Assembly (NCBI GenBank): GCA_965222075.1
Contig: OZ244937.1
Location: 4,832,001-4,896,000, forward strand
From: Candidatus Latescibacterota bacterium
GTDB taxonomy: Bacteria; Latescibacterota; UBA2968; GCA-2709665
Reading direction: 5' to 3'
Length of the DNA: 64,000 nt
Positions 4,987-24,493 of this stretch are shown piece by piece. Position 1 is the stretch's first letter, and the number at the start of each line of letters is the position of its first letter. Under the pieces are notes generated by a model, which saw only the letters and a program-made list of their open reading frames with translations, made no database searches and had not been told where the DNA came from. A program made the translations under genes and the position numbers.

Positions 4987-6624
4987 CTACCACCCGACCG
5001 CATATCCGTCCCGCCTCGGATCCGAGCCGCCGATAAGGGCGCTGGATTCGGGGTCAATGAGTATGGCCTGCGCACTGCCGGGACCGTCCCAGTCTCTTAG
5101 GATCTGGAGTTCATGCCCTTTTTGGGCGAGTCCTTCACGGACATCTCCGGGGAACCGGCCTTCCAGCTGCAGGACGTCCGCACAGGTGTGGGGGATCGTG
5201 GATTCCATCGGGTTTTGCAGGTTGCGCCAGCGGGGGGCCTCAACAGCCTCCTGGGGGGTCATGCCGAAGTCGAGGATGTGCGTGATGAGCTGGAGGTTGG
5301 TTTGCACCTGCGTGTCCGCGCCCGGGGTGCCGCAGACGAGGAGGGGTTTGTTGTCTTTTGTTACGATGACGGGATTCATGGTGTGGCGCACCCGCTTGCC
5401 GGGCATGAGGCAGTTGGGGTGATCGGCGTCCAGGTGCCAATAGGTCATCCGGTTGTTGAGCAGGATGCCGGTGTTTCCCGCAATGAGGCTCGAGCCGAAC
5501 CCGGACTGGATGCTTTGCAGGACACAGATGGCGTTTCCCCACCGGTCGGCGACGCAGAAACAGGTGGTGTCTTCAAACGATTCGGGCGAACCGGAGGGGA
5601 CGTCGGTGAGCGCCCGGTTGGGGTCGATGCGTTCGGTTTGCCGGGTGGCGTAGGCTTTGGAGAGCATGCCTTTGAGGGGGATGTCGCCCCACCTGGGATC
5701 GGCCATGTATTTTTCCCGGTCTGCAAAGGAGAGTTTTTTGGCTTCGACCATAATGTGGATGCTTTCGGCGGTGTTGCAGCCCAGGGACCGCAGGTCGAAG
5801 TTTTCGACGATGTTCAGTTCCTGCAGGAGAATGTGGCCGCTGGAGTTGGGGGGCGTTTCGTAGACACGGTGGCCCCGGTAGGTTGTGTGGATGGGATCGT
5901 CCCAGTGGGCGTGGTGGTCGGCGAGGTCTTTTTTGGTGAGCAGCCCTTCATAGGCCTCGCTGAATTTGACGATTTCGCGGGCGATTTCTCCTTCGTAGAG
6001 GGTGCCGCGTCCTTCTGCTGCGATTTTTTGCAGGGTTCTGCCGAGGTCTTTTTGATACAGGATTTCTCCGGGGTTAAGCGGCCGGCCGTCGCGGGTGAAT
6101 ACGGCGCGGGTGTAGGGGTCGGAGGCGAAGCGCTCGTTTTCGTTTTTGAGCGATGCGGCGAATTTGTGGCTGACGGGGAAGCCGTTTTCGCACAGCGATA
6201 CGGCAGGGTCGAATACCCGATCGAGGCTGAGTACGCCGTAACGCTCGTGGGCGATGAGCCAGCCGTCCACCAGCCCGGGGACCGAGACGCTGCGGATGCC
6301 TTTCATCGGGATGCCGCCGCTTTCGATGTAGAGGTCGCGGGTTGCCGCAGAGGGGGCGGCGCCGGTGGCGTTCACACAGGTTAAGGCGCCTGTTTCCGCC
6401 CAGTGAATGAGGAGGAATCCGTCGCCGCCAACGCCGGAGCTGGCCGGTTCGACCACGCCCAGCGCAGCGGCGGTTGCGATGGCGGCGTCTATGGCATTGC
6501 CACCGGCCATCAGGATCTGGATGCCGGCCTGAGAGGCGAGCAGGTGGCCGGATGTGACCATGCCGTTTCTACCCATAACCGGGGGACGATATGCTGAAAA
6601 ATGAACACCGTGTGGAGATTGCAT
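4987..6624 (-). CDS. ggt: Gamma-glutamyltransferase family protein
   Basis: GGNAIDAAIA, SGVGGDGF, nucleophile EDTTCFCVADRWGN, GSDPRRDG. Start placed at MQSPHG because the upstream extension runs over repeats. Confidence 0.9.
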   Translation of the reverse strand: MQSPHGVHFSAYRPPVMGRNGMVTSGHLLASQAGIQILMAGGNAIDAAIATAAALGVVEPASSGVGGDGFLLIHWAETGALTCVNATGAAPSAATRDLYIESGGIPMKGIRSVSVPGLVDGWLIAHERYGVLSLDRVFDPAVSLCENGFPVSHKFAASLKNENERFASDPYTRAVFTRDGRPLNPGEILYQKDLGRTLQKIAAEGRGTLYEGEIAREIVKFSEAYEGLLTKKDLADHHAHWDDPIHTTYRGHRVYETPPNSSGHILLQELNIVENFDLRSLGCNTAESIHIMVEAKKLSFADREKYMADPRWGDIPLKGMLSKAYATRQTERIDPNRALTDVPSGSPESFEDTTCFCVADRWGNAICVLQSIQSGFGSSLIAGNTGILLNNRMTYWHLDADHPNCLMPGKRVRHTMNPVIVTKDNKPLLVCGTPGADTQVQTNLQLITHILDFGMTPQEAVEAPRWRNLQNPMESTIPHTCADVLQLEGRFPGDVREGLAQKGHELQILRDWDGPGSAQAILIDPESSALIGGSDPRRDGYAVGW

Positions 6625-6638
6625 AGCGTTTCCTGACT

Positions 6639-6664
6639 GTAGGGGCGATGCTTGTGATCGCCCT
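6639..6664 (+). repeat. GTAG-type REP palindrome
   Basis: GTAGGGGCGATGCTTGTGATCGCCCT; near-identical copy at 43398-43422. Confidence 0.7.
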
Positions 6665-6713
6665 TTACGGTTTGATTGTTCGCGGTGGGGGTTTGACTCC
6701 GCGCCTCTGTGGT

Positions 6714-7994
6714 TCAAAAAGATCGAAACAGCTTCGCATAGGGCATCGGGTCTGAGAAGATGCCGCCGCTTTGACGGTAGTACTCATTGTCTAAGACAAA
6801 AGCGCCGGATCGGGGTTTGAGCCAGGTCGCGTCCGGGATGGGGTATGCCGCGAGAAGGTCGGGCCAGGTGGCGTAGGTTTCGGGGCCGTTGGATTCCAGG
6901 ATGCCGCCCCTGACACCGGGGAATGCGGGCAGGCGGGCGATGACGTTTTTGTTCCATTCCACAAGGGTGGGCACACAGGCGTTGTCCGCCACAAAACAGT
7001 AAGCCCCGGCCTCGGCGGCGGCGGCGACCATCTGAAAGGTGAGGGAGAGGGTCTTGCCGGCCGGTTTGAGGGCGACAGCCCCGTATCCCTGCTGGATTTT
7101 GGCGTTGATGTCCCGGACGCTGTGGAGGCTCTCGTCTGCGGCGAATCTGGCCGGGAGGTCCGTGACGTCGACTTCCAGGGTTTCGTCAAAGGGTTCTTCG
7201 AGGAGGATGATGCGGTCGAGCATGCCGATTTTTTGGGCGTGGTCGAGCAGCCGGGCGATGTTTTCTTTTTTCTTATACCGGCCGTTGGCGTCCAGGTAAT
7301 AGAGGACCTTTCCGGAGTCGGTCATCGGGGTCTCGCAGGCGCGGGCGGCCTTGTGGATTCGGGTCAGGCAGTCCATGTCTTTGCACAGCATTTCGGATTC
7401 GCTTCCAGGCTGGCCGATCTTTATCTTCAGGATACAGGCGCCGCCGTCTAAGACGCTCTGGACGACGTCCATAGGGAGGGCGTAGGAAACCAGGGGGACG
7501 CCGGCAAGATGGGTCTGGCGGTGGGAGAGATAGGGGCGATAGGGCAAAGGGATGAGGTCATCGAAGGTGTCGATGCCGTTTTCCTTAGCGTAGAGCATCC
7601 AGGCGGCGTTGTCCAGGGCGACGAGGGAGATGAGAGAGAAGGTGAGCCGCAGGTTGGGGTTGTGGGTCACGGTCTTGCCATAATCGTGCACCTGCGGGAG
7701 GAGATCGGCCAGGATGGCCATGGGGTCTGTATAGTTTCGGCGTTTGACCTGCTGCAGGGCGTATTCCAAAAGGGCGGTCATCAAGACGTTGCCGCCGACT
7801 TCGGTATGCGCTAAGAAGACGTCCCCATCGGCCCACAGGACGGCCAGGCCGCCCAGGCCGAAGGCCTCGTGTTCGGCATCGTCCCGCAGGCGGACGGCAA
7901 GGTTCCATTTTTCGTGGAAGGCGGCGCCTTTGAAGCCGAAGGGGCGCGCAAAGGGTTCGCGCTGGATTTCGAGGTCGGTGTGAACGATATGCAT
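6714..7994 (-). CDS. Enolase superfamily (mandelate racemase / Ala-Glu epimerase-like) protein
   Basis: KIKIG, LDANG, LEEP, ADES metal-ligand pattern; true start MHIVHTD at 7994. Confidence 0.85.
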   Translation of the reverse strand: MHIVHTDLEIQREPFARPFGFKGAAFHEKWNLAVRLRDDAEHEAFGLGGLAVLWADGDVFLAHTEVGGNVLMTALLEYALQQVKRRNYTDPMAILADLLPQVHDYGKTVTHNPNLRLTFSLISLVALDNAAWMLYAKENGIDTFDDLIPLPYRPYLSHRQTHLAGVPLVSYALPMDVVQSVLDGGACILKIKIGQPGSESEMLCKDMDCLTRIHKAARACETPMTDSGKVLYYLDANGRYKKKENIARLLDHAQKIGMLDRIILLEEPFDETLEVDVTDLPARFAADESLHSVRDINAKIQQGYGAVALKPAGKTLSLTFQMVAAAAEAGAYCFVADNACVPTLVEWNKNVIARLPAFPGVRGGILESNGPETYATWPDLLAAYPIPDATWLKPRSGAFVLDNEYYRQSGGIFSDPMPYAKLFRSF

Positions 7995-15665: not shown

Positions 15666-18600
15666 TTAACTCCTGTATATCGGCTCAAAGAGGACCGTAT
15701 CTCCCACCACATAGTCCACAATTCGGACCCAGGCTCCCTCCTGAAGTTTCAGAATTCTCTCCACATTTCCTCTGCTTTCGTCCACACGAAGGGACGTGCG
15801 GCCCTCTCCCGGTGGTTGGGGCCACAACCTCGGGTTTGCGGCTTCGGCAATTTCCGCCCAGGCGCCGTCGGCTTCAGACTGCAGGCGGGTTTTGTGCAGG
15901 TTGCCGGTTCTGGCCAGGATGGGAAAGCCAAGGTCGATCCGATCGCGGTCTACTGAGACAACTTTTGCCCGACCCAGCACAGAGCTGACATCGAGTTTGA
16001 GATGAACCATGTTCGGACCGGAGGGTTCGACGGCCTCCACTTTGTAGGTGTGGCCGCGGCCCTCCGGGTTGATCCGGATCCGATCCCCCGGCTCGATCTT
16101 CACAAGCCCCTCCACGTCGATGGCGCAGGTCTGACGGTCGATGGCGACGATGCAGCCGGTCTGATGGGCGTTCTCAAAGTGGAAGGTTTTGCCTTGATGG
16201 TGGAGGCCGGATGCGCCTGCGGCGACAACGGTTCCGTCGATGACGGCGGCGAGGGCACCTTCAAGACGGGTGCCGTCATCGAATTGGGTGGGAACATCCG
16301 GGTTGGCCTCGGGAGCCCAGTAAAGGGCGATGCGTCTGCCCCGGCGGGTGGTGAGGCCGATGCCGCTTGCGGTTGTAGCGCCTGTGTGGACGGCGATCGG
16401 TTTTGCCTCTGCGAGGGTGGGGTCTCCCACGCGGGGTTCGAAGACGAGGTCGATGCAGGTCGGCTCCTGCTCGTGGAGGGGGGAGCGCCTCCAGAGGAGG
16501 GTGCGGTACCGGTATTTGGACAGATCGGGTTCACCCATCACGGCCGTGGCGCGGGCGGTGAGGAGTTCGGTGTTGGGACCGGTCCTGAGCTGGTGGAGGT
16601 CGAGGCATACGGCAGGCTCGGCTTCGGACTGCCAGGACCCCTTCCAGACCGGCAGGGCCTCTGCTGCGGCCACGTCGTCCATGTAGGCGAGGGCTGTGTG
16701 GTCGGGGTGAGACAGGGTTTCCATATTTCCCCTGTTTCCCCTGGGGTCTGCCACGGTTCCCGGCCGGGGCGTGAATCCGGCGCCGGGAGATTGACAGGCG
16801 CCTTCCATGCCTTTGCAGGCGCGCCAGTGTTCGGTTCCTCCACGGATTCTGGACAGGTCGATGAGGGCGACGCCATCCCCATCTGTTTCAACAAGCGCAA
16901 TGAGGCGGCGGAAGGTGACGCCGGATTTGTACCACCGGTTCCGGGCGCTGTCCCATGCCCAGCGGTCGGCTTCGACATCGAGGACCTGGAGGCCGTCTGC
17001 AAACAGGGTGCGGATGAGGCTGCCCCGGCCGGCGACCCCGGGATCGGCCGGGCCGGGCAGGGTTGCCCAGACCGTGTTGTGGGTTGCCCAGTGGCCTTCC
17101 CATACCGGGCGGCTGGCCCAGGACTGGGGGTAGCCCAGGTCGGTGAGGAAGGGCCTGCCAAAGGCGAAGAGCTGGACATCTAAGAGGTCCCGGTGCCGGT
17201 GCCCGGGGGTGTCGCCGTAGACGATGCCAACGGCCGCCCGTTCGGGGGCTTCGGGAGTCCGGAGGATGGCGATTCCGACGCCGTCGTGGACGGTGGGGCC
17301 GATGGCCCTGTGCCGGCCGGTCTGCACGGCGGTCCGGATTTCGCAAACGGTTGGATCTTCGGTAAATTCAACGGCCCATTCGAGGATGTCGGCGGAGTTG
17401 TAGACGTAGATACAGTCGGCCTCAAGGGGGGCCGCGCCCTTTCCGTGGACGCCGGACCCTGGCGAAGCGCCGTCGCCGAACTGGAACCAGGATTTGCCGA
17501 TCATGGTGATTTCATGCGGCTGCCGGGCAATGCGGGAGGCCCTGGGGTCGCTGAGCAGGGGGGGATAACGGGACTCGGGATAGGCTTCGGGGTGCTGTTT
17601 GCGAAGCTGCCGGAGCTGGTGTTCGAGGATGAAAAGCCCGTTGGTGTGGATGCTGTTGTAATTGCCTGTGGCCTCCGGGGGGGTGCCGTCGGGGAAAAAG
17701 TCATTGGTGGTGAAAACGCGGAGGGTGTCGGGGCCCTCGTCGTAGAGCCAGTCCAGGGCGTTCCGGGCGTCTGGACGGTCCAGGCCCCGGAGGAGGGTCA
17801 GCGCGCCCAGGCTCTCCCGGGGCTGGTTGCTGCGAGCGCCCCAGTCCAGGATGCACTGGAGGTGGACGGCCAGCATTTCTTCGATGAAGGCAGCGACATC
17901 ACCGGGCGTCCGGACGTTGAGGCCAAGCGCCTGCGCCCGCCTGACCAGTTCCGGATCTTCGCGGACGAGGGGCCAGATGGTGTCGTAGGCTAAAGCGAGG
18001 ATTTCACCGATGTAGGGAATGTCGATGGCATAGCGGAGCAGGCCCTTGGCGGACAGCGCGGCCACCGTGTCGGGCTCGCCGGCCCAGTCGGGCTGCCCCC
18101 ATTCCCAGGGTTGCTCCACTTCTTTGGACGGTCCGTGGCGGTACTGGGGAGCCGATGCGGCATAACATTCTTCTGCTGCATAACGCAGGAGCATGAGGCC
18201 AAGCTGACGGGCGGTGTCCTCATCAAAGCCGTTTGTGCGCAAATGGGCGGTGAGCGCCCCGATGGCGCCGCCGTAGTTCTGGATCAGGTCCCTGGTATAG
18301 CTGGCGGCAAAGAGGAAGATGTGGCCTTCGGAATCGAAATAACCAAAGCCGTCGTCTACATACGCTCCGGAGGTGAAGTCTTCTGCGATCAGGTCGTTGC
18401 TGGGAAAGGTGGTCCCGCAGGAGGGACACTCGGAGCGAAAATCGGCCGGGAGGTGATTGCGCACCCAGGGGTAGAATCCGCCGAATTTGAAGATGGCGGT
18501 GCCGCACTGGGGACAGCCCTGGTGGACGTTGGTATAATGGGCTTTGGGGAGTTCCGCCGGGGGAAACTGGCGCCAGAGCACACCGTCTGGCTGCGCGGTC

Positions 18601-19001
18601 CACCAGGAGACCAGGTCATCGTTGATCCTGGAGGGTTCACGCGTGTCCTGGAGCGTCTGACGGGTTTTGGTGGACCGATAGGGCCGACTTAAAGGCCACC
18701 TGCGGGGCCACCAGGCGCCGTTGTAGGTGTGGGGACGGCGCAGCTCGTCTAAGGTGCGTACCTGGAGCGCGATTTGCGCGGTGCGCCCGTTCCTGTGGGC
18801 GGTGATGGTGTAGTCCCCGGACTGCTGCGGGGTACGGAGGTAGTGGTAGAGGGCAGAATCGGCCTGTACCCACCGGGCGGCGATTGGCTGGAAGCCGTCG
18901 GCTTCCAGGGCGATATTACCGTCGGGCGCCTGGACCGGCAGGCGGAAGGCGCGTCCGGTTAAGATGACGCGGGGCGCCCAGGGGATGCGGAGGTTCGGCA
19001 T
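15666..19001 (-). CDS. Large heparinase II/III-like protein
   Basis: GHRHRDLLDVQLFAFGRPFLTDLGYP and ATHNTV motifs; N-terminal CPQCG...CPSCG and VDDGFGY. Confidence 0.75.
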   Translation of the reverse strand: MPNLRIPWAPRVILTGRAFRLPVQAPDGNIALEADGFQPIAARWVQADSALYHYLRTPQQSGDYTITAHRNGRTAQIALQVRTLDELRRPHTYNGAWWPRRWPLSRPYRSTKTRQTLQDTREPSRINDDLVSWWTAQPDGVLWRQFPPAELPKAHYTNVHQGCPQCGTAIFKFGGFYPWVRNHLPADFRSECPSCGTTFPSNDLIAEDFTSGAYVDDGFGYFDSEGHIFLFAASYTRDLIQNYGGAIGALTAHLRTNGFDEDTARQLGLMLLRYAAEECYAASAPQYRHGPSKEVEQPWEWGQPDWAGEPDTVAALSAKGLLRYAIDIPYIGEILALAYDTIWPLVREDPELVRRAQALGLNVRTPGDVAAFIEEMLAVHLQCILDWGARSNQPRESLGALTLLRGLDRPDARNALDWLYDEGPDTLRVFTTNDFFPDGTPPEATGNYNSIHTNGLFILEHQLRQLRKQHPEAYPESRYPPLLSDPRASRIARQPHEITMIGKSWFQFGDGASPGSGVHGKGAAPLEADCIYVYNSADILEWAVEFTEDPTVCEIRTAVQTGRHRAIGPTVHDGVGIAILRTPEAPERAAVGIVYGDTPGHRHRDLLDVQLFAFGRPFLTDLGYPQSWASRPVWEGHWATHNTVWATLPGPADPGVAGRGSLIRTLFADGLQVLDVEADRWAWDSARNRWYKSGVTFRRLIALVETDGDGVALIDLSRIRGGTEHWRACKGMEGACQSPGAGFTPRPGTVADPRGNRGNMETLSHPDHTALAYMDDVAAAEALPVWKGSWQSEAEPAVCLDLHQLRTGPNTELLTARATAVMGEPDLSKYRYRTLLWRRSPLHEQEPTCIDLVFEPRVGDPTLAEAKPIAVHTGATTASGIGLTTRRGRRIALYWAPEANPDVPTQFDDGTRLEGALAAVIDGTVVAAGASGLHHQGKTFHFENAHQTGCIVAIDRQTCAIDVEGLVKIEPGDRIRINPEGRGHTYKVEAVEPSGPNMVHLKLDVSSVLGRAKVVSVDRDRIDLGFPILARTGNLHKTRLQSEADGAWAEIAEAANPRLWPQPPGEGRTSLRVDESRGNVERILKLQEGAWVRIVDYVVGDTVLFEPIYRS

Positions 19002-19011
19002 GGGGTGTCCT

Positions 19012-19848
19012 CTATACTGCCATCTCTGCTTTGATCGCCGGGTGATGCTTGTAGTCGATCAGTTTGAAATCACCATAGACGAAATCGTCGATCGTTTTCT
19101 GCCCCCTGTCTTCGATGTGGAGCCGGGGGAGCGGATAGGGCGTTCGACTCAGCTGCTCGCGCACTGCGTTGATGTGATTCAGATAGATGTGCACGTCTCC
19201 CAGGGTGTGGATGAATTCATAAGGCTCCAGATGGGTGAGTTGGGCCACCATGTGGAGCAGGAGCGAATAGGAGGCGATGTTCAACGGGACGCCTAAGAAC
19301 ATGTCGCAGGAGCGCTGGTACATCTGGAGAGAAAGCCGGTTCCCCGCTACATAAAACTGGAAGAAAGTATGGCAGGGAGGCAAGGCAACGTCTTGGGGGC
19401 CGACTTCGGCGGCGTTCCAGGCGTTGACCATGATCCTGCGGGAGTCGGAATCGGTTTTAATGGTGTCGATCGCTTCTTGAAGTTGATCAACGGTTCTGTC
19501 CACGCCCCGCCAGTTCCTCCACTGCGCGCCGTAGATTCTGCCCATTGACCCATCGTTTTCCGGTTGTCCGGTTCTTTTCAGGTAGTCCTGATAGTTGCCA
19601 TCCCACAGACTGTTGTTGGGGTAAAGGCTTTTGAGGTCGTAGATGTTGTCGGACCCGGAGATAAACCAGAGGAGTTCGGTGACCATGGACCTCCAGACGA
19701 GCCGTTTGGTGGTGACCGCCGGGAATCCGTCGACCATTCCGTACCTGGCCTGAAGCCCGAAGCCTGAAATGGTTCCGACCCCTGTTCTATCTTTTTTTTG
19801 CGTGCCGTGGCTCAGGATGTACTGGAGCTGGTCCAAGTATTGTTTCAT
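19012..19848 (-). CDS. thyA: Thymidylate synthase
   Basis: DRTGVGT, ELLWFI, YGAQWR, ALPPCH, YQRSCDMFLGVP.NIASY. Confidence 0.97.
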   Translation of the reverse strand: MKQYLDQLQYILSHGTQKKDRTGVGTISGFGLQARYGMVDGFPAVTTKRLVWRSMVTELLWFISGSDNIYDLKSLYPNNSLWDGNYQDYLKRTGQPENDGSMGRIYGAQWRNWRGVDRTVDQLQEAIDTIKTDSDSRRIMVNAWNAAEVGPQDVALPPCHTFFQFYVAGNRLSLQMYQRSCDMFLGVPLNIASYSLLLHMVAQLTHLEPYEFIHTLGDVHIYLNHINAVREQLSRTPYPLPRLHIEDRGQKTIDDFVYGDFKLIDYKHHPAIKAEMAV

Positions 19849-19905
19849 TTCAGGCTCTTCGTAAGGCTGATGACCACCGATGACCACGGGTAGGGGCCAA
19901 AAGCT

Positions 19906-20382
19906 TTAGCGGTTAGCGGGCGTTTTTCTTTTGTATACCACGAAAACGAACTCGGGGTGGTCTTTCTCTTTTGTGATTTCCCACTCGGTCTGGTCGAATT
20001 CGGGGAAGTAGGTGTCTCCGTCGTAGTCTTTTTTGATGTAGGAGAGGTACATTTTGTCCGCAAGGGGGAGGGCCTGGCGGTAGACCTCGCTGCCGCCGAA
20101 GATGAAGCTTTCTTTTTCGCAGGACCGGGCTTTCTGGATGGCGTCTTCGAAGGTTTTGCAGACGTGGATGCCTTCGGTTTCGGGGAGGGTGCGGCTGATG
20201 ACGATGTTTTTTCTCCCGGGGAGGGGACGGCTGCCCAGAGATTCGAAGGTTTTGCGGCCCATGATAAGGGTGTTGCCCATGGTGAGCCTCCGTAACTGTC
20301 TGCTTTCTTCGGAGATGTGCCAGGGCATGGCATTGTTATTGCCGACCACCCGATTCCTGGTCATGGCTGCGATGATGATCAT
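19906..20382 (-). CDS. folA: Dihydrofolate reductase
   Basis: MPWH, IMGRKTFES, PLPGRKNIVISR, FGGSEVY, GDTYFP. Confidence 0.95.
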   Translation of the reverse strand: MIIIAAMTRNRVVGNNNAMPWHISEESRQLRRLTMGNTLIMGRKTFESLGSRPLPGRKNIVISRTLPETEGIHVCKTFEDAIQKARSCEKESFIFGGSEVYRQALPLADKMYLSYIKKDYDGDTYFPEFDQTEWEITKEKDHPEFVFVVYKRKTPANR

Positions 20383-21734
20383 GGCCTGACCTCGTTTTTC
20401 AGCGGGGGCGCGATGTGAAGGAGCGGTGGGGGAGAGGTTGTCCGGCCGATGAGGTCGTATTCGAGGGCACCGGTGATTTCGACCTCTGCGAACTCGCCGA
20501 TTTGCGCCGGGCCGGTGAGGGTGACTTCCCCGTCGATTTCGGGTGCGTCCATTCGGGTGCGTCCGATGAGGTCGAAGGCGGGGTCTTCGGAGACTCTGTC
20601 GACCAGGACCTGGAAGGTTTGTCCGACAAATCCCTGGTTGATTTCAGCAGAGATGGCCGCCTGAAGGTCCAGAATGCGGTCGAGGCGTTCCCGCTTTTCC
20701 TCCTCGAATACGTCGTCGATCATGAGCCCTGCGGATGTGCCCTCTTCGTGGGAGTAGAGGAAGCCCACGAGGCGGTTGAACCGGATTTCGTCGATGAAGT
20801 CCAGCAGTTCCCGGACGTGTTCTTCCCGTTCGCCGGGGAATCCGGCGATGACGGACGTCCGGACCGTGAGATTGGGCACACGCTCCCGGAGCGTTCGGAT
20901 GAGTTTTCGGATGCCGGCCTTTGTGGTGCTTCGGTTCATGGCCTTGAGGATGGGATCGGAGGCGTGCTGGATGGGCATATCGACATAGGCACAGAGCTTC
21001 TCTTCGGCCGCCAGCAGGTCGATCAGGTCCTCACGCCAGCCGGTGGGGTAGGTGTAGAGGAGGCGGACCCATTTGAGGCCGTCGATTTTGACAAGCTCCC
21101 GGACCAGGTCCACAAGCCGGGGCCGCCCGTAGATGTCGGCGCCGTAGCGCATGGTGTCCTGGGCGACCAGGGCGATTTCTTTGACCCCGCCGGCGACCAT
21201 CCGGAAGGCTTCTGCGACGAGTACTTCGATAGACTCACTCCGGTTGGGGCCCTTGAAGCCGGGGATGGCGCAGAAGGCGCAGGTCCGGTCGCAGCCGTCG
21301 GAGATCCGGAGGTAGGCCCAGTGGTTCGGGGTGAGGAGGAAGCGCGACGCATCGCCTCTGAGTGTCTGCGCCCGGGATACCCCCAAAAGCCGGTCGCAGT
21401 GGGCCACGATGTCCCGCTCGCCGGCCAGGCCGACGATCAGGTCGGCTTCGGTGAGTTCCGCCTCGAGTTCATCCCGGTAGCGCTCGGCCAGGCAGCCCGT
21501 GACGATCAGGCCTTTGCAGTTTCCGCTTTCTTTGTAATCTGCGGCCTCCAGGGCCGTGGCGATGGATTCTTCTTTTGCAGGTTGAATAAACCCGCAGGTG
21601 TTGACGACGATCAGGTCGGCGTCTTCTGAAGACTCGGTAAGGGCATAGCCGTTGCGTTCCAGCAGCCGGTGCATCCGTTCGGAGTCTACGGTGTTTTTGG
21701 GACATCCGAGGGTGATGAGGTTGACTTTGTGCAT
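20379..21734 (-). CDS. rimO: Ribosomal protein S12 methylthiotransferase
   Basis: LGCPKNTVDSE, NTCGFI, CDRTCAFC radical-SAM motif, DAPEIDG TRAM domain. Confidence 0.93.
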   Translation of the reverse strand: MHKVNLITLGCPKNTVDSERMHRLLERNGYALTESSEDADLIVVNTCGFIQPAKEESIATALEAADYKESGNCKGLIVTGCLAERYRDELEAELTEADLIVGLAGERDIVAHCDRLLGVSRAQTLRGDASRFLLTPNHWAYLRISDGCDRTCAFCAIPGFKGPNRSESIEVLVAEAFRMVAGGVKEIALVAQDTMRYGADIYGRPRLVDLVRELVKIDGLKWVRLLYTYPTGWREDLIDLLAAEEKLCAYVDMPIQHASDPILKAMNRSTTKAGIRKLIRTLRERVPNLTVRTSVIAGFPGEREEHVRELLDFIDEIRFNRLVGFLYSHEEGTSAGLMIDDVFEEEKRERLDRILDLQAAISAEINQGFVGQTFQVLVDRVSEDPAFDLIGRTRMDAPEIDGEVTLTGPAQIGEFAEVEITGALEYDLIGRTTSPPPLLHIAPPLKNEVRP

Positions 21735-21934
21735 ATGCTTGAAGTGTCCGTAGATTTTTTTATCGACTGCTCTCGCCGGATTTGACATTCCAGGTCAAGC
21801 GGAGATTTCTGATGCCGGTGTGTCTGCACGGTACTGGAGAAATGATCGGATAAGAAGCCCTTTTTGTCAAGCCTGAAGATCCCGGGGCAAAGTCCACAGC
21901 AGGGACGGCGGCCGATATTTGGGCCAAAAAACCC

Positions 21935-22199: not shown

Positions 22200-22229
22200 G
22201 GAATGGGCCGATCACGATGGTTCGGTGTG

Positions 22230-22261
22230 AAAACTCACCTTGAGTGAAAGGTGAGTTTTTT
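22230..22261 (+). terminator. Intrinsic terminator after rpmB
   Basis: AAAACTCACCTT-GAGTGA-AAGGTGAGTTTTTT. Confidence 0.8.
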
Positions 22262-22300: not shown

Positions 22301-24493
22301 ATGGACTATTTTCACAGCAAGCGGTTCTTAGACACGCTGCAGGACTGGGAGCGGGGGGGCGCGCCCCTGGGCCCTCTGGAGGACTATTTGCCCCGCATGA
22401 GGGCGCTGCTGAGCCGCTTAGACGATCCGCAGGCGCAATATACCTCCATTATTGTGGGGGGGACGGACGGCAAGGGGACGGTGGGCAGCCTGCTGGCGGC
22501 GCTTTTGCACGCGGCAGGCCGGGGGGTCGGGCTTTATATCTCACCCGATCTGCATACCATACGGGAGCGGGTGCAGGTGGATGGAAAGGTGGTGGCGAAG
22601 GATCTCTGGGCCGAGGGGGTGACCCACCTGTATGAGAAGAGCAGGGATTTCGAACGGGAGGGGTACGGCGCGTTCAGCAGGTTTGAGGCCCTCACGGCCC
22701 TGGGGGCCCATCTGTTTGCCCGGGAGGGCGTGGACTACGGGATTTTCGAAGTGGGGTTGGGCGGACGGTACGACGCTACAAATGCCTGGGATTCCGATCT
22801 GGCGGTCCTCACGCCGATTCACCTGGACCACACGGATGTGCTGGGAGAGAGGCTGGAGGAGATCGCCGCGGATAAGTTTACCATTGCCCGGCCGAAGCGG
22901 CCGCTGTTTACCACAGCGTCTCAGGCGCCGGAGGTCTTAGCATACCTCCGGCGGCAGAGCGAGCGGAGCGGGGTGGACCTCTACGTTGTGGGCGCCGGGG
23001 GTGTGGACGCTCCTGCGGGGCGGGCAGGCCTTGTCCTCCCTTCGATTACAGAGGCGTTGCCGGATCGCGCTTCCACCTACATCCGGAATGTCCGCCTGGC
23101 CACAGCCGCCGGGCGCTACCTTCTGGGGGAGGCGCTTGGGGAGGCGCTTGTCCGGGAGACAGTGGAGGCCCACCAGTGGCCGGGGCGGTTCGAGGTGGTG
23201 CGAAAGGATCCCTGGATTCTGCTGGATGGGGCGCACAACCCTGCGGCCGCTGCCGCACTGGTGGAAGACCTTCGAGGTATTTCGCAGCAGTGGACGTTTG
23301 TCGTAGGGGTAAATGCAGGACACGATGCGGCCGGTATTTTGCAGGCCATCCGGCCGATTGCAAAGGAAGTTATCCTGACGGAGTCAGGCCATCCAAAGGC
23401 GATTCCGGCCAGGGTGCTGCGGCAATACCTGCACGGAGGGATTTCCGCCCGGTGTGCGTCTGACCGCCTGGAGGCCCTCAAACGGGAGGTGTCCGGTTTA
23501 AAGGCGGGCGATTGTCTCTGCGTGATCGGATCGCTTTACCTGGTTGCCCAGGCGCGAGATGTGCTCAACCTCCCGGGCGAGCGGGACGGGTTCAGTGAAG
23601 ACGTGATCCTGGAGAGCCTGAGATGCGTAGAAGCGGCCTGTCAGAATCTGGGAGTGGCATATACGGCGGTTTCGGAAGACGGAAATGTGCTGCGCCTCAT
23701 CCGGAACGGCAGGCCCGTTTACTTTTTACGCAATAAGCACCCGTTTAACGATTACGTCGGGGCGCGTCTGGCAGAGGATAAGGCGTATCAGTACGAACTG
23801 TTTCTGCAGGCAGGCCTTCGGGTTCCTTATACGCTGAAGGTCTTCAATCCCCTTGCAGCCCCCCGATTTGACCGCTATAAGACCCATTCCTCTGTGGATG
23901 CTATTGTGGAGGATGTCGAGCGGCAGTTTACCTATCCGGTGGTGGTGAAGCGAAAGCGGGGCTCTATGGGGCAGGGGGTGTACCTGGAGACGAACCGCTT
24001 TGGTCTGAAGCAGCGCCTGCAGGCGTTGTGTGAAAACAGCGGCTACTTAGATAATGTCTTTCTGGTCCAGGCCGTTGTGAGCGGTCCGGAGTACCGTATT
24101 GTGGCCAGCCAGGGGGATCTACTTCTGGCCTATGAAAAGAGAAACGACCTGGGCGGGGAATCGGAGGATTTAAATCCTCTGCACCGGGCCGGCGGACGTG
24201 CGGTGCGGGTCGCCGACCCCGGCCTGCACAGTTCGATGGAGGAGGTTGTAAAGGGGATTGCACAGGTTATTGACCTGGGATTTTACGCCATCGATCTGAT
24301 TCTGGCCGAAGATGGGTTCTCCGTTCTGGAGATCAATCCCAACCCGATCTGCTATTTTTACAATTCGCACAACAGCCGTTCGGATTTTGTGCGTATTTAC
24401 GAGTGGTTGATCCGCAAGTATCTGATGGAAGGGGACCGGAGCGAGTTGGAGCGGCCGGATATCGGGCTGGCGGTTGCAGCAAGGGGCGATTGA
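22301..24493 (+). CDS. folC: Folylpolyglutamate/dihydrofolate synthase fused to C-terminal ATP-grasp domain
   Basis: FolC: GGTDGKGTV, EVGLGGRYDATN, DHTDVLG, WPGRFE, LDGAHNP, IGSLYLV. ATP-grasp: AEDK..AGLRVP, YPVVVK..GSMGQGV, EYRIV, AIDLI, VLEINPNP. Confidence 0.9.
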   Translation: MDYFHSKRFLDTLQDWERGGAPLGPLEDYLPRMRALLSRLDDPQAQYTSIIVGGTDGKGTVGSLLAALLHAAGRGVGLYISPDLHTIRERVQVDGKVVAKDLWAEGVTHLYEKSRDFEREGYGAFSRFEALTALGAHLFAREGVDYGIFEVGLGGRYDATNAWDSDLAVLTPIHLDHTDVLGERLEEIAADKFTIARPKRPLFTTASQAPEVLAYLRRQSERSGVDLYVVGAGGVDAPAGRAGLVLPSITEALPDRASTYIRNVRLATAAGRYLLGEALGEALVRETVEAHQWPGRFEVVRKDPWILLDGAHNPAAAAALVEDLRGISQQWTFVVGVNAGHDAAGILQAIRPIAKEVILTESGHPKAIPARVLRQYLHGGISARCASDRLEALKREVSGLKAGDCLCVIGSLYLVAQARDVLNLPGERDGFSEDVILESLRCVEAACQNLGVAYTAVSEDGNVLRLIRNGRPVYFLRNKHPFNDYVGARLAEDKAYQYELFLQAGLRVPYTLKVFNPLAAPRFDRYKTHSSVDAIVEDVERQFTYPVVVKRKRGSMGQGVYLETNRFGLKQRLQALCENSGYLDNVFLVQAVVSGPEYRIVASQGDLLLAYEKRNDLGGESEDLNPLHRAGGRAVRVADPGLHSSMEEVVKGIAQVIDLGFYAIDLILAEDGFSVLEINPNPICYFYNSHNSRSDFVRIYEWLIRKYLMEGDRSELERPDIGLAVAARGD

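Follow-up and report, generated by a model that had tools for sequence, protein, structure and literature searches.

FolC enzymes activate a carboxyl group as an acyl-phosphate and attach L-glutamate to dihydropteroate as well as to the folate tail at its gamma-carboxyl, and folate tails are generally taken as gamma-linked. RimK-kind ATP-grasp ligases activate a carboxyl and then add an amino acid, with several of them acting on the glutamate tails of cofactors, and cyanophycin synthetase (CphA1) elongates a single chain by the alternate action of its two sites. Alpha-linked distal glutamates were reportedly found in Escherichia coli folates by Ferone et al. in 1986. A passage of a 2007 comparative genomics paper likewise gives alpha linkages in the distal folate tail of E. 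coli and names no gene there (PMC1971073). The RimK homologue MyfB is described, in a passage of another paper, as extending the polyglutamate chain of methylofuran, and MyfB, like RimK as cited there, makes polyglutamates from free glutamate in vitro (PMC8141765). Here, we report a gene that joins a FolC to a RimK-like ATP-grasp ligase in one polypeptide, at 22301-24493 (plus strand) of a 64,000-nucleotide stretch of a Candidatus Latescibacterota bacterium (contig OZ244937.1, positions 4,832,001 to 4,896,000; the whole stretch is hereafter the window; G+C content, 60%).

The fusion gene, taken from the list of open reading frames (ORFs) and its translation, starts with ATG and encodes 730 residues plus a stop. 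A first-pass annotation of this DNA had described one uninterrupted 730-residue frame, and the translation of 22301-24493 is indeed free of internal stops, with no break in base composition around the gene. The ATP-grasp motifs that the annotation quoted (YPVVVK..GSMGQGV, EYRI, AIDL, and LEINPNP) are all in the translation, and profile scans of both halves, which it had proposed, placed each above a family cut-off (NCBIfam TIGR01499 folC and Pfam RimK PF08443). An AlphaFold model of the full-length protein has a predicted local distance difference test (pLDDT) score of 85.5 and a predicted template modeling (pTM) score of 0.70. Relatives of the whole fusion comprise at least 120 protein clusters (680 to 766 residues; 53 to 94% identity) that cover 93 to 100% of the query; the whole-protein search gave 464 proteins with an E value of ≤0.001 among 8,000 candidates scored. 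One genome per species was scanned with an alignment of the C-terminal half; 105 loci encode a relative, of which 80 were kept, so that sequence counts below refer to 81 sequences (the window plus these loci) and neighbor counts to the 10-kb flanks of the 80 loci. Both halves lie in one uninterrupted frame of at least 650 residues at 80 of 80 loci (range, 654 to 866 residues, with the upper values reflecting a crude choice of the first possible start codon), which answers the question of whether related genomes share the architecture or carry two genes. The fusion is genuine and unites a true FolC and an ATP-grasp ligase of the RimK-like type in one polypeptide.

The FolC half (residues 1 to 428; 22301-23584, plus strand) has the Mur-ligase fold of the dihydrofolate synthase/folylpolyglutamate synthase type, as identified with TIGR01499, alignments, and a fold search. 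Against TIGR01499 it scores 268 bits (cut-off, 162.65), with residues 30 to 421 matching profile positions 1 to 399 of 400, in agreement with the earlier description of a complete N-terminal FolC; Pfam reports Mur_ligase_C (61.6 bits, residues 295 to 411) and Mur_ligase_M (25.6 bits). Alignments pair residues 49 to 423 with positions 51 to 415 of the E. coli FolC chain (1w78), include residues 5 to 422 with Thermotoga maritima FolC (1o5z), and run along the full length of the half with Mycobacterium tuberculosis FolC, and phmmer E values to 2vor, 1o5z, 1w78, and 1fgs range from 2.8e-41 to 3e-34. Foldseek, run with the full-length model, ranked FolC structures first, with target-normalized template modeling (TM) scores of ~0.74 to 0.82, against ~0.52 for MurE. 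The P-loop (GGTDGKGT, residues 53 to 60; 22457-22480, plus strand) aligns with AGTNGKGT of E. coli FolC, and EVGLGGRYDATN, LDHTDVLG, K192, and DGAHNP also align with their E. coli counterparts; we take these, from the FolC literature, to be the nucleotide-binding P-loop, the Mg ligands, the conserved lysine, and the DxAHN motif. Residues E150, D158, N161, H177, K192, D309, H312, and N313 are invariant in 81/81 sequences, and K58 of the P-loop is kept in 80/81, the remaining one being N-truncated. Given the TIGR01499 score, the full-length alignments, the fold match, the kept motifs, and the FOL3_C domain (PF27239) precomputed on relatives of the fusion, the N-terminal half is filed as an ordinary FolC, with catalysis predicted. 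PF27239 was also considered as a linker-specific domain and dropped, as it is also present in ordinary stand-alone FolCs and appears in the Atlas under the name FOL3_C. In a search with residues 30 to 410 that was limited to proteins of 209 to 667 residues, fragments of the fusion itself came first, and the nearest stand-alone FolCs found after them (mostly unnamed) share 36 to 42% identity.

As a separate observation, D56 of the P-loop occurs only in the window and in its near-twin locus L001, which is 94 to 95% identical to the window with an identical gene order; the usual N stands at this position in 78/81 sequences.

The ATP-grasp half (residues 434 to 730; 23600-24493, plus strand) is a short carboxylate-amine ligase of the RimK-like type whose N-terminal subdomain is reduced. 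The ligase domain extends over about residues 434 to 705, with a low-confidence tail in the model from about residue 722; its start at about residue 434 agrees with the alignment of a 286-residue stand-alone relative (P0154), which begins there. Pfam RimK (PF08443) matches residues 493 to 682 with 31.7 bits (gathering cut-off, 21). The model of this half (pLDDT, 87.7; pTM, 0.85) shows one helix and three short strands, followed by the usual central and C-terminal ATP-grasp domains, and the match to the RimK-family profile TIGR00768 is limited to positions 76 to 255 of 276; the model and the late start of the profile match together indicate that most of the usual N-terminal domain is gone. RimK (5zct_C) is the best fold match (E value, 1.5e-13; TM, ~0.6), followed in order by the ATP-grasp domain of cyanophycin synthetase, ArgX/LysX, the ATP-grasp part of GshAB, and Ddl, and RimK is also the best sequence match among solved structures (E value, 7e-4).

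At the positions where RimK binds nucleotide and metal, the aligned residues of the ATP-grasp half do not vary among the fused sequences. The AIDL...LEINPNP segment (residues 665 to 682; 24293-24346, plus strand) aligns with GVDIL...VMEVNASP of E. coli RimK, and its D665, E677, and N679, which we presume to bind metal, are present in 81/81 fused sequences and in all 121 stand-alone relatives aligned. The full set of checked positions in this half (D493, K494, K550, Q590, E597, R599, K613, H628, D665, E677, and N679) is invariant in 81/81 and mostly common to the same 121 proteins, with H628 only partly conserved there. Thus counted over both halves, 20 checked ligase-motif positions (9 FolC and 11 ATP-grasp) are unchanged in 81/81 sequences, apart from the one that is kept in 80/81 on account of the N-truncated row. 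Mean identity is higher for the ATP-grasp half (59.9%) than for the FolC half (54.8%; 79 loci), and the ATP-grasp half is the more conserved of the two at 78/80 loci. From its sequence, the ATP-grasp half is almost certainly an active ligase.

The two halves meet at a join of fixed length. The conserved junction (residues 424 to 442; 23570-23626, plus strand) reads LPGERDGFSEDVILESLRC in the window, with the consensus LP.ErDg..ED..lEsL.C, and the FolC half stops exactly where the ATP-grasp half starts at 80/80 loci. The stretch corresponding to window residues 405 to 485 is 81 residues long in 68 sequences and 82 in the other 13 (n = 81), so there is no variable linker.

A FastTree phylogeny placed the fused C-terminal halves as one clade among 126 stand-alone relatives (18/18 sampled; Shimodaira-Hasegawa-like support, 100), and since they form a single branch, one ancient fusion event is likely. 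Four short, closely related proteins (P0122, P0123, P0129, and P0135) retain the last part of FolC at their N termini and for this reason look like truncated gene calls; short proteins of this type are mostly on short contigs. By NCBI label, the 80 loci comprise 62 Latescibacterota, 13 Gemmatimonadota, 1 Handelsmaniibacteriota, and 4 unlabeled.

In the fusion tree, records labeled Gemmatimonadota, Gemmatimonas phototrophica, or Handelsmanbacteria (L013, L028, L032, L034, L044, L057, L060, L061, L063, L065, L076, L077, L079, and L080) sit at short distances among Latescibacterota rows; for example, L034 adjoins L029 and L044 adjoins L045. Because of these short distances, the odd phylum labels look like inconsistent labeling of metagenome-assembled genomes rather than gene transfer.

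A profile search with the ATP-grasp half against 1.84 billion representatives gave 3,151 matches at an E value of ≤0.001, 595 at ≤1e-10, and 150 at ≤1e-30. Among the best 150 representatives, 123 are 255 to 300 residues long and match the whole profile (positions ~5 to 275), with E values down to 1e-80, and feature-based look-alikes of this half in the Atlas are short proteins of the same type. Like the ATP-grasp half of the fusion, these stand-alone relatives (P0286-P0427) have a reduced N-terminal subdomain, and they carry the same catalytic set. In an NCBIfam scan of 27 of them, 26 had sub-threshold rimK_fam matches (33.8 to 75.1 bits) and one, a 110-residue fragment, had no match; Pfam gave RimK plus weak YheC/D-like and ATPgrasp_ST matches. 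By sequence, the ATP-grasp half is therefore assigned to a large unnamed family of short (~275-residue) stand-alone ATP-grasp proteins. The closest true stand-alone relative of the C-terminal half is at most ~36% identical to it. No second FolC or ATP-grasp copy was found within the window or the 10-kb flanks of the 80 loci, a scope that leaves out whole genomes, and tblastn with the C-terminal half against plasmid and phage collections found only RimK-type genes, at 25 to 27% identity.

Several residues are invariant in the fused clade only: RNKH at 477 to 480, Y485, R522, R525, H529, R572, N625, C684, N688, and R693. RNKH and Y485 fall in a motif specific to the clade (RNKHPFNDY, residues 477 to 485; 23729-23755, plus strand), which is invariant in the 18 fused sequences sampled; its R477, N478, K479, H480, and Y485 are not conserved in the 121 stand-alone relatives. 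Many of these clade-specific residues are basic (R477, K479, H480, R522, R525, H529, R572, and R693), from which we infer that the ATP-grasp substrate in the fused clade is probably specialized and polyanionic, as would suit a poly-carboxylate.

The locus thus encodes two ATP-dependent amide ligases with unchanged motif residues, joined rigidly and conserved together. Our preferred reading, which we hold tentatively and at somewhat less than an even chance, is that of an enzyme with two sites, FolC building the glutamate tail of folate and the ATP-grasp domain modifying it further. The FolC site would make glutamylated folate; the ATP-grasp site would take up this product, activate a free carboxyl of the tail, and add one or more further amino acids to it. 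The residue added would most plausibly be L-glutamate, attached through the alpha-carboxyl, in parallel with CofF capping the gamma-glutamyl tail of F420, MptN adding glutamate to tetrahydromethanopterin, and MyfB extending the methylofuran tail. A conserved join to FolC, fixed in length, takes the place of most of the usual N-terminal domain of the ATP-grasp half. The narrower form of this reading, self-contained two-linkage folate tailoring in which FolC builds a gamma-glutamyl tail and the ATP-grasp site then caps or extends it through the alpha-carboxyl, we consider possible and, on balance, doubtful.

Several observations weigh against a folate-tail ligase of this kind. The nearest relatives of the ATP-grasp half are the unnamed stand-alone proteins of ~275 residues, and membership in that large family leaves alpha-glutamate specificity as a prediction; folate as the ATP-grasp substrate, the amino acid added, and the linkage formed are likewise all matters that we infer. 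The half scores 50.9 bits against the RimK-family model TIGR00768, well under the cut-off of 143.4; the CofF (TIGR04443) and MptN (NF040720) models have no match to the fusion protein at an E value of ≤0.1; and the arginine of FRSNLHRGG in RimK aligns with a leucine. The first-pass label of RimK-like therefore stands as far as the Pfam RimK match and the best sequence and structure matches go, and does not extend to membership in TIGR00768, CofF, or MptN. The gene context also argues against a close folate link: in the window, rimO, rpmB, and a hairpin separate folA-thyA from the fusion, folA and thyA are missing from the 10-kb flanks of about 60 of the 80 loci, and the commonest neighbor is moaA (36/80), essentially in one clade.

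The foremost alternative, unlikely in our judgment and still to be taken seriously, is that the ATP-grasp half acts on a non-folate substrate (a protein C terminus, as with RimK and S6; a peptide; or some other metabolite with a carboxylate), the FolC fusion serving only co-expression or a shared supply of glutamate and ATP. It would fit the occurrence of the nearest relatives without FolC, as the short proteins that make up 123 of the best 150 representatives, as well as the action of the best solved matches (RimK and ArgX/LysX) on protein C termini and the presence of the ribosomal genes rpmB and rimO as immediate neighbors in the window. However, rpmB lies upstream at just 17/80 loci, no stand-alone copy closer than ~36% identity was found, and neither a junction of fixed length conserved in 81/81 sequences nor the loss of most of the N-terminal domain would be expected if the fusion were kept for co-expression alone.

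An improbable alternative to tail modification after FolC is the reversed order, with the ATP-grasp site making a dipeptide or oligo-glutamate from free amino acids and FolC attaching it to pteroate or folate. A Mur ligase followed by an ATP-grasp domain has a precedent in the bifunctional MurC/Ddl (NF011171), and the scheme would resemble Ddl feeding MurF; the fold matches of the ATP-grasp half include Ddl structures; and polyglutamate synthesis from free glutamate by MyfB and RimK in vitro, in the passage cited (PMC8141765), points the same way. Against this, the match of the fusion to NF011171 is negligible (11.4 bits against 1,015), and the FolC half shows no departures from ordinary FolC motifs. 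FolC enzymes use free L-glutamate, which also speaks against a preassembled chain as the FolC substrate.

Less probable again is a maker of a non-ribosomal amino acid polymer, like cyanophycin synthetase with its domains reversed and unrelated to folate. Source records name two relatives (P0007 and P0061) "cyanophycin synthetase," CphA1 structures appear among the fold matches of both halves, and the NCBIfam models of cyanophycin synthetase give weak matches of 40.9 and 38.5 bits. Those scores are far under the cut-offs of 850 and 877, though, and the Mur-like half passes the FolC cut-off, with a TM score of 0.82 to FolC against 0.3 to 0.5 to MurE or CphA1; the domains stand in the opposite order, and the NCBIfam scan of the fusion gives no match to the N-terminal domain of CphA1.

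A non-catalytic ATP-grasp half, serving FolC as a regulatory, oligomerization, or nucleotide-sensing module, is very improbable: the canonical N-terminal domain is missing and the FRSN arginine of RimK is not matched by arginine, as might be expected of such a module, but all 11 checked ATP-grasp positions are invariant in the fused sequences, most of them (not H628) are shared with the stand-alone relatives, and this half is better conserved than FolC. An assembly or sequencing artifact joining two neighboring genes has a practically negligible chance, since the halves are contiguous and in frame in 80/80 independent genome loci and full-length relatives fill at least 120 protein clusters.

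The gene order in the window is thyA (19012-19887, minus strand; Pfam, 343.5 bits), folA (19906-20382, minus strand; Pfam, 170.2 bits), rimO (20379-21788, minus strand; TIGR01125, 468 bits against 357), rpmB for ribosomal protein L28 (22008-22199, plus strand, directly upstream of the fusion; TIGR00009, 86.3 bits against 48.3), the fusion (plus strand), and a GH106-like glycosidase gene (minus strand). A terminator-like hairpin followed by a U run lies after rpmB (~22229-22261, plus strand; 13-bp stem, −20.5 kcal/mol, z = −3.99); none of 200 shuffled sequences folded as stably, and the hairpin is not listed by the consensus terminator scan. The thyA-folA-rimO genes are transcribed away from the fusion, and with rimO, rpmB, and the hairpin in between, the fusion shares neither an operon nor a divergent promoter with folA-thyA. 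No folate synthesis genes other than folA, thyA, and the fusion were recognized in the window. A leader RNA was considered and dropped: with the Rfam gathering cut-offs, 0 matches were obtained across the window, and so no folate or ZTP riboswitch upstream.

Across the related loci, thyA occurs within 10 kb at 19/80, folA at 18/80, and rimO at 20/80, and lineages with this context lie to either side of the midpoint root in the fusion tree. The first-pass annotation placed folA-thyA about 2 kb from the fusion; in the window this is correct (1.9 kb between the folA and fusion starts), whereas over the 80 loci the pairing is confined to 18 or 19, rimO and rpmB intervene, and moaA is commoner. For these reasons the folate link through the neighborhood is real but partial and loose, and folA-thyA was dropped as a general partner, being clade-bound.

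The moaA gene (radical S-adenosylmethionine plus Mob_synth_C) precedes the fusion on the same strand, ~20 nucleotides away in the loci inspected (e.g., L055:7694-8743), and is found at L024-L034, L042, L047, L049, and L055-L080. It is often preceded by XdhC, CoxE-type VWA, and AAA genes, and a pyridoxal phosphate-dependent enzyme of Cys/Met metabolism follows the fusion at 28/80 loci. With one exception, the 36 moaA loci make up a single 37-row clade, so this context amounts to about one evolutionary event, and it was not built on as a functional clue; we know of no glutamylated molybdopterin. A GH106-like gene lies downstream at 27/80 loci and is the sole recognized neighbor in 21 tree rows. 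The three neighborhoods (thyA/folA/rimO, moaA, and GH106-like) each track the fusion-protein tree.

Two further genes of the window were recorded. Directly downstream of thyA, an ORF of 1,111 residues (15666-19001, minus strand) has no Pfam or NCBIfam match and is conserved beside thyA at 15/80 related loci, with 58 to 94% identity. A gamma-glutamyltransferase gene (4987-6717, minus strand; TIGR00066, 481 bits; cut-off, 358) is located at a distance of 15 kb from the fusion.

Public records name proteins of this type "cyanophycin synthetase," "Mur ligase family protein," "dihydrofolate synthase/folylpolyglutamate synthase," "ATP-grasp domain-containing protein," or "hypothetical." Among these, the FolC assignment is the one that the sequence evidence supports, and the name cyanophycin synthetase could lead metabolic reconstructions of Latescibacterota astray. 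A literature search, with subscription journals outside its coverage, found no paper on a FolC plus ATP-grasp architecture, and it found no gene for the E. coli alpha-linked folate-tail activity of 1986. Retained by all of the related genomes examined, with no change at the checked motif residues of either site, the FolC-RimK-like fusion offers a concrete candidate for alpha-linked folate-tail chemistry. If the two-linkage reading is correct, the fusion would be the first gene linked to an activity of the folylpoly-alpha-glutamate type, and the stand-alone relatives of ~275 residues (the 3,151 profile matches) would become candidates for the same orphan step in other bacteria or, alternatively, for similar modifications of cofactor tails. 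The analysis further reveals a large group of short ATP-grasp ligases for which NCBIfam has no name.

Among known systems, ordinary FolC (TIGR01499; 1w78, 1o5z, 2vor, and 1fgs) shares with the fusion the P-loop, EVGLGGRxDATN, LDHTDxLG, the K192 position, and DxAHNP; the fusion differs in ~300 extra residues that form a second ligase domain and, in the window and L001 only, in the D that replaces the usual P-loop N. The bifunctional MurC-Ddl has the same order of folds in one protein, Mur ligase and then ATP-grasp, but belongs to the peptidoglycan pathway and to other subfamilies of both folds. An Atlas cluster of Bacillota proteins (53 members, ~742 residues; Mur_ligase_M, Mur_ligase_C, and ATPgrasp_YheCD) may be another family of Mur-ligase plus ATP-grasp fusions, a lead with a score of only 0.87.

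CphA1 (TIGR02068 and NF010623; 7lgj and 7wac), found in the fold searches of both halves, also combines ATP-grasp and Mur-ligase-like parts in one polypeptide, in the order N domain, ATP-grasp, Mur-like. In the fusion, the Mur-like residues 277 to 402 correspond to cyanophycin synthetase profile positions 705 to 835 of 871 and the later ATP-grasp residues 533 to 608 to positions 238 to 309 of 862, which confirms the opposite order that had been pointed out at first reading.

The NCBIfam models TIGR00768, TIGR04443, and NF040720 are named as alpha-L-glutamate ligases acting on cofactor tails or protein C termini. With RimK, CofF, and MptN, the ATP-grasp half shares the fold and the positions of DK, K550, E597/R599, LHR, and D665/E677/N679, and it differs in scoring below the family cut-off and in having lost most of the N-terminal domain. 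Compared with the stand-alone ATP-grasp family, the fusion is set apart by its joining to FolC and by the invariant residues found only in its own clade, and the fused clade forms a single branch.

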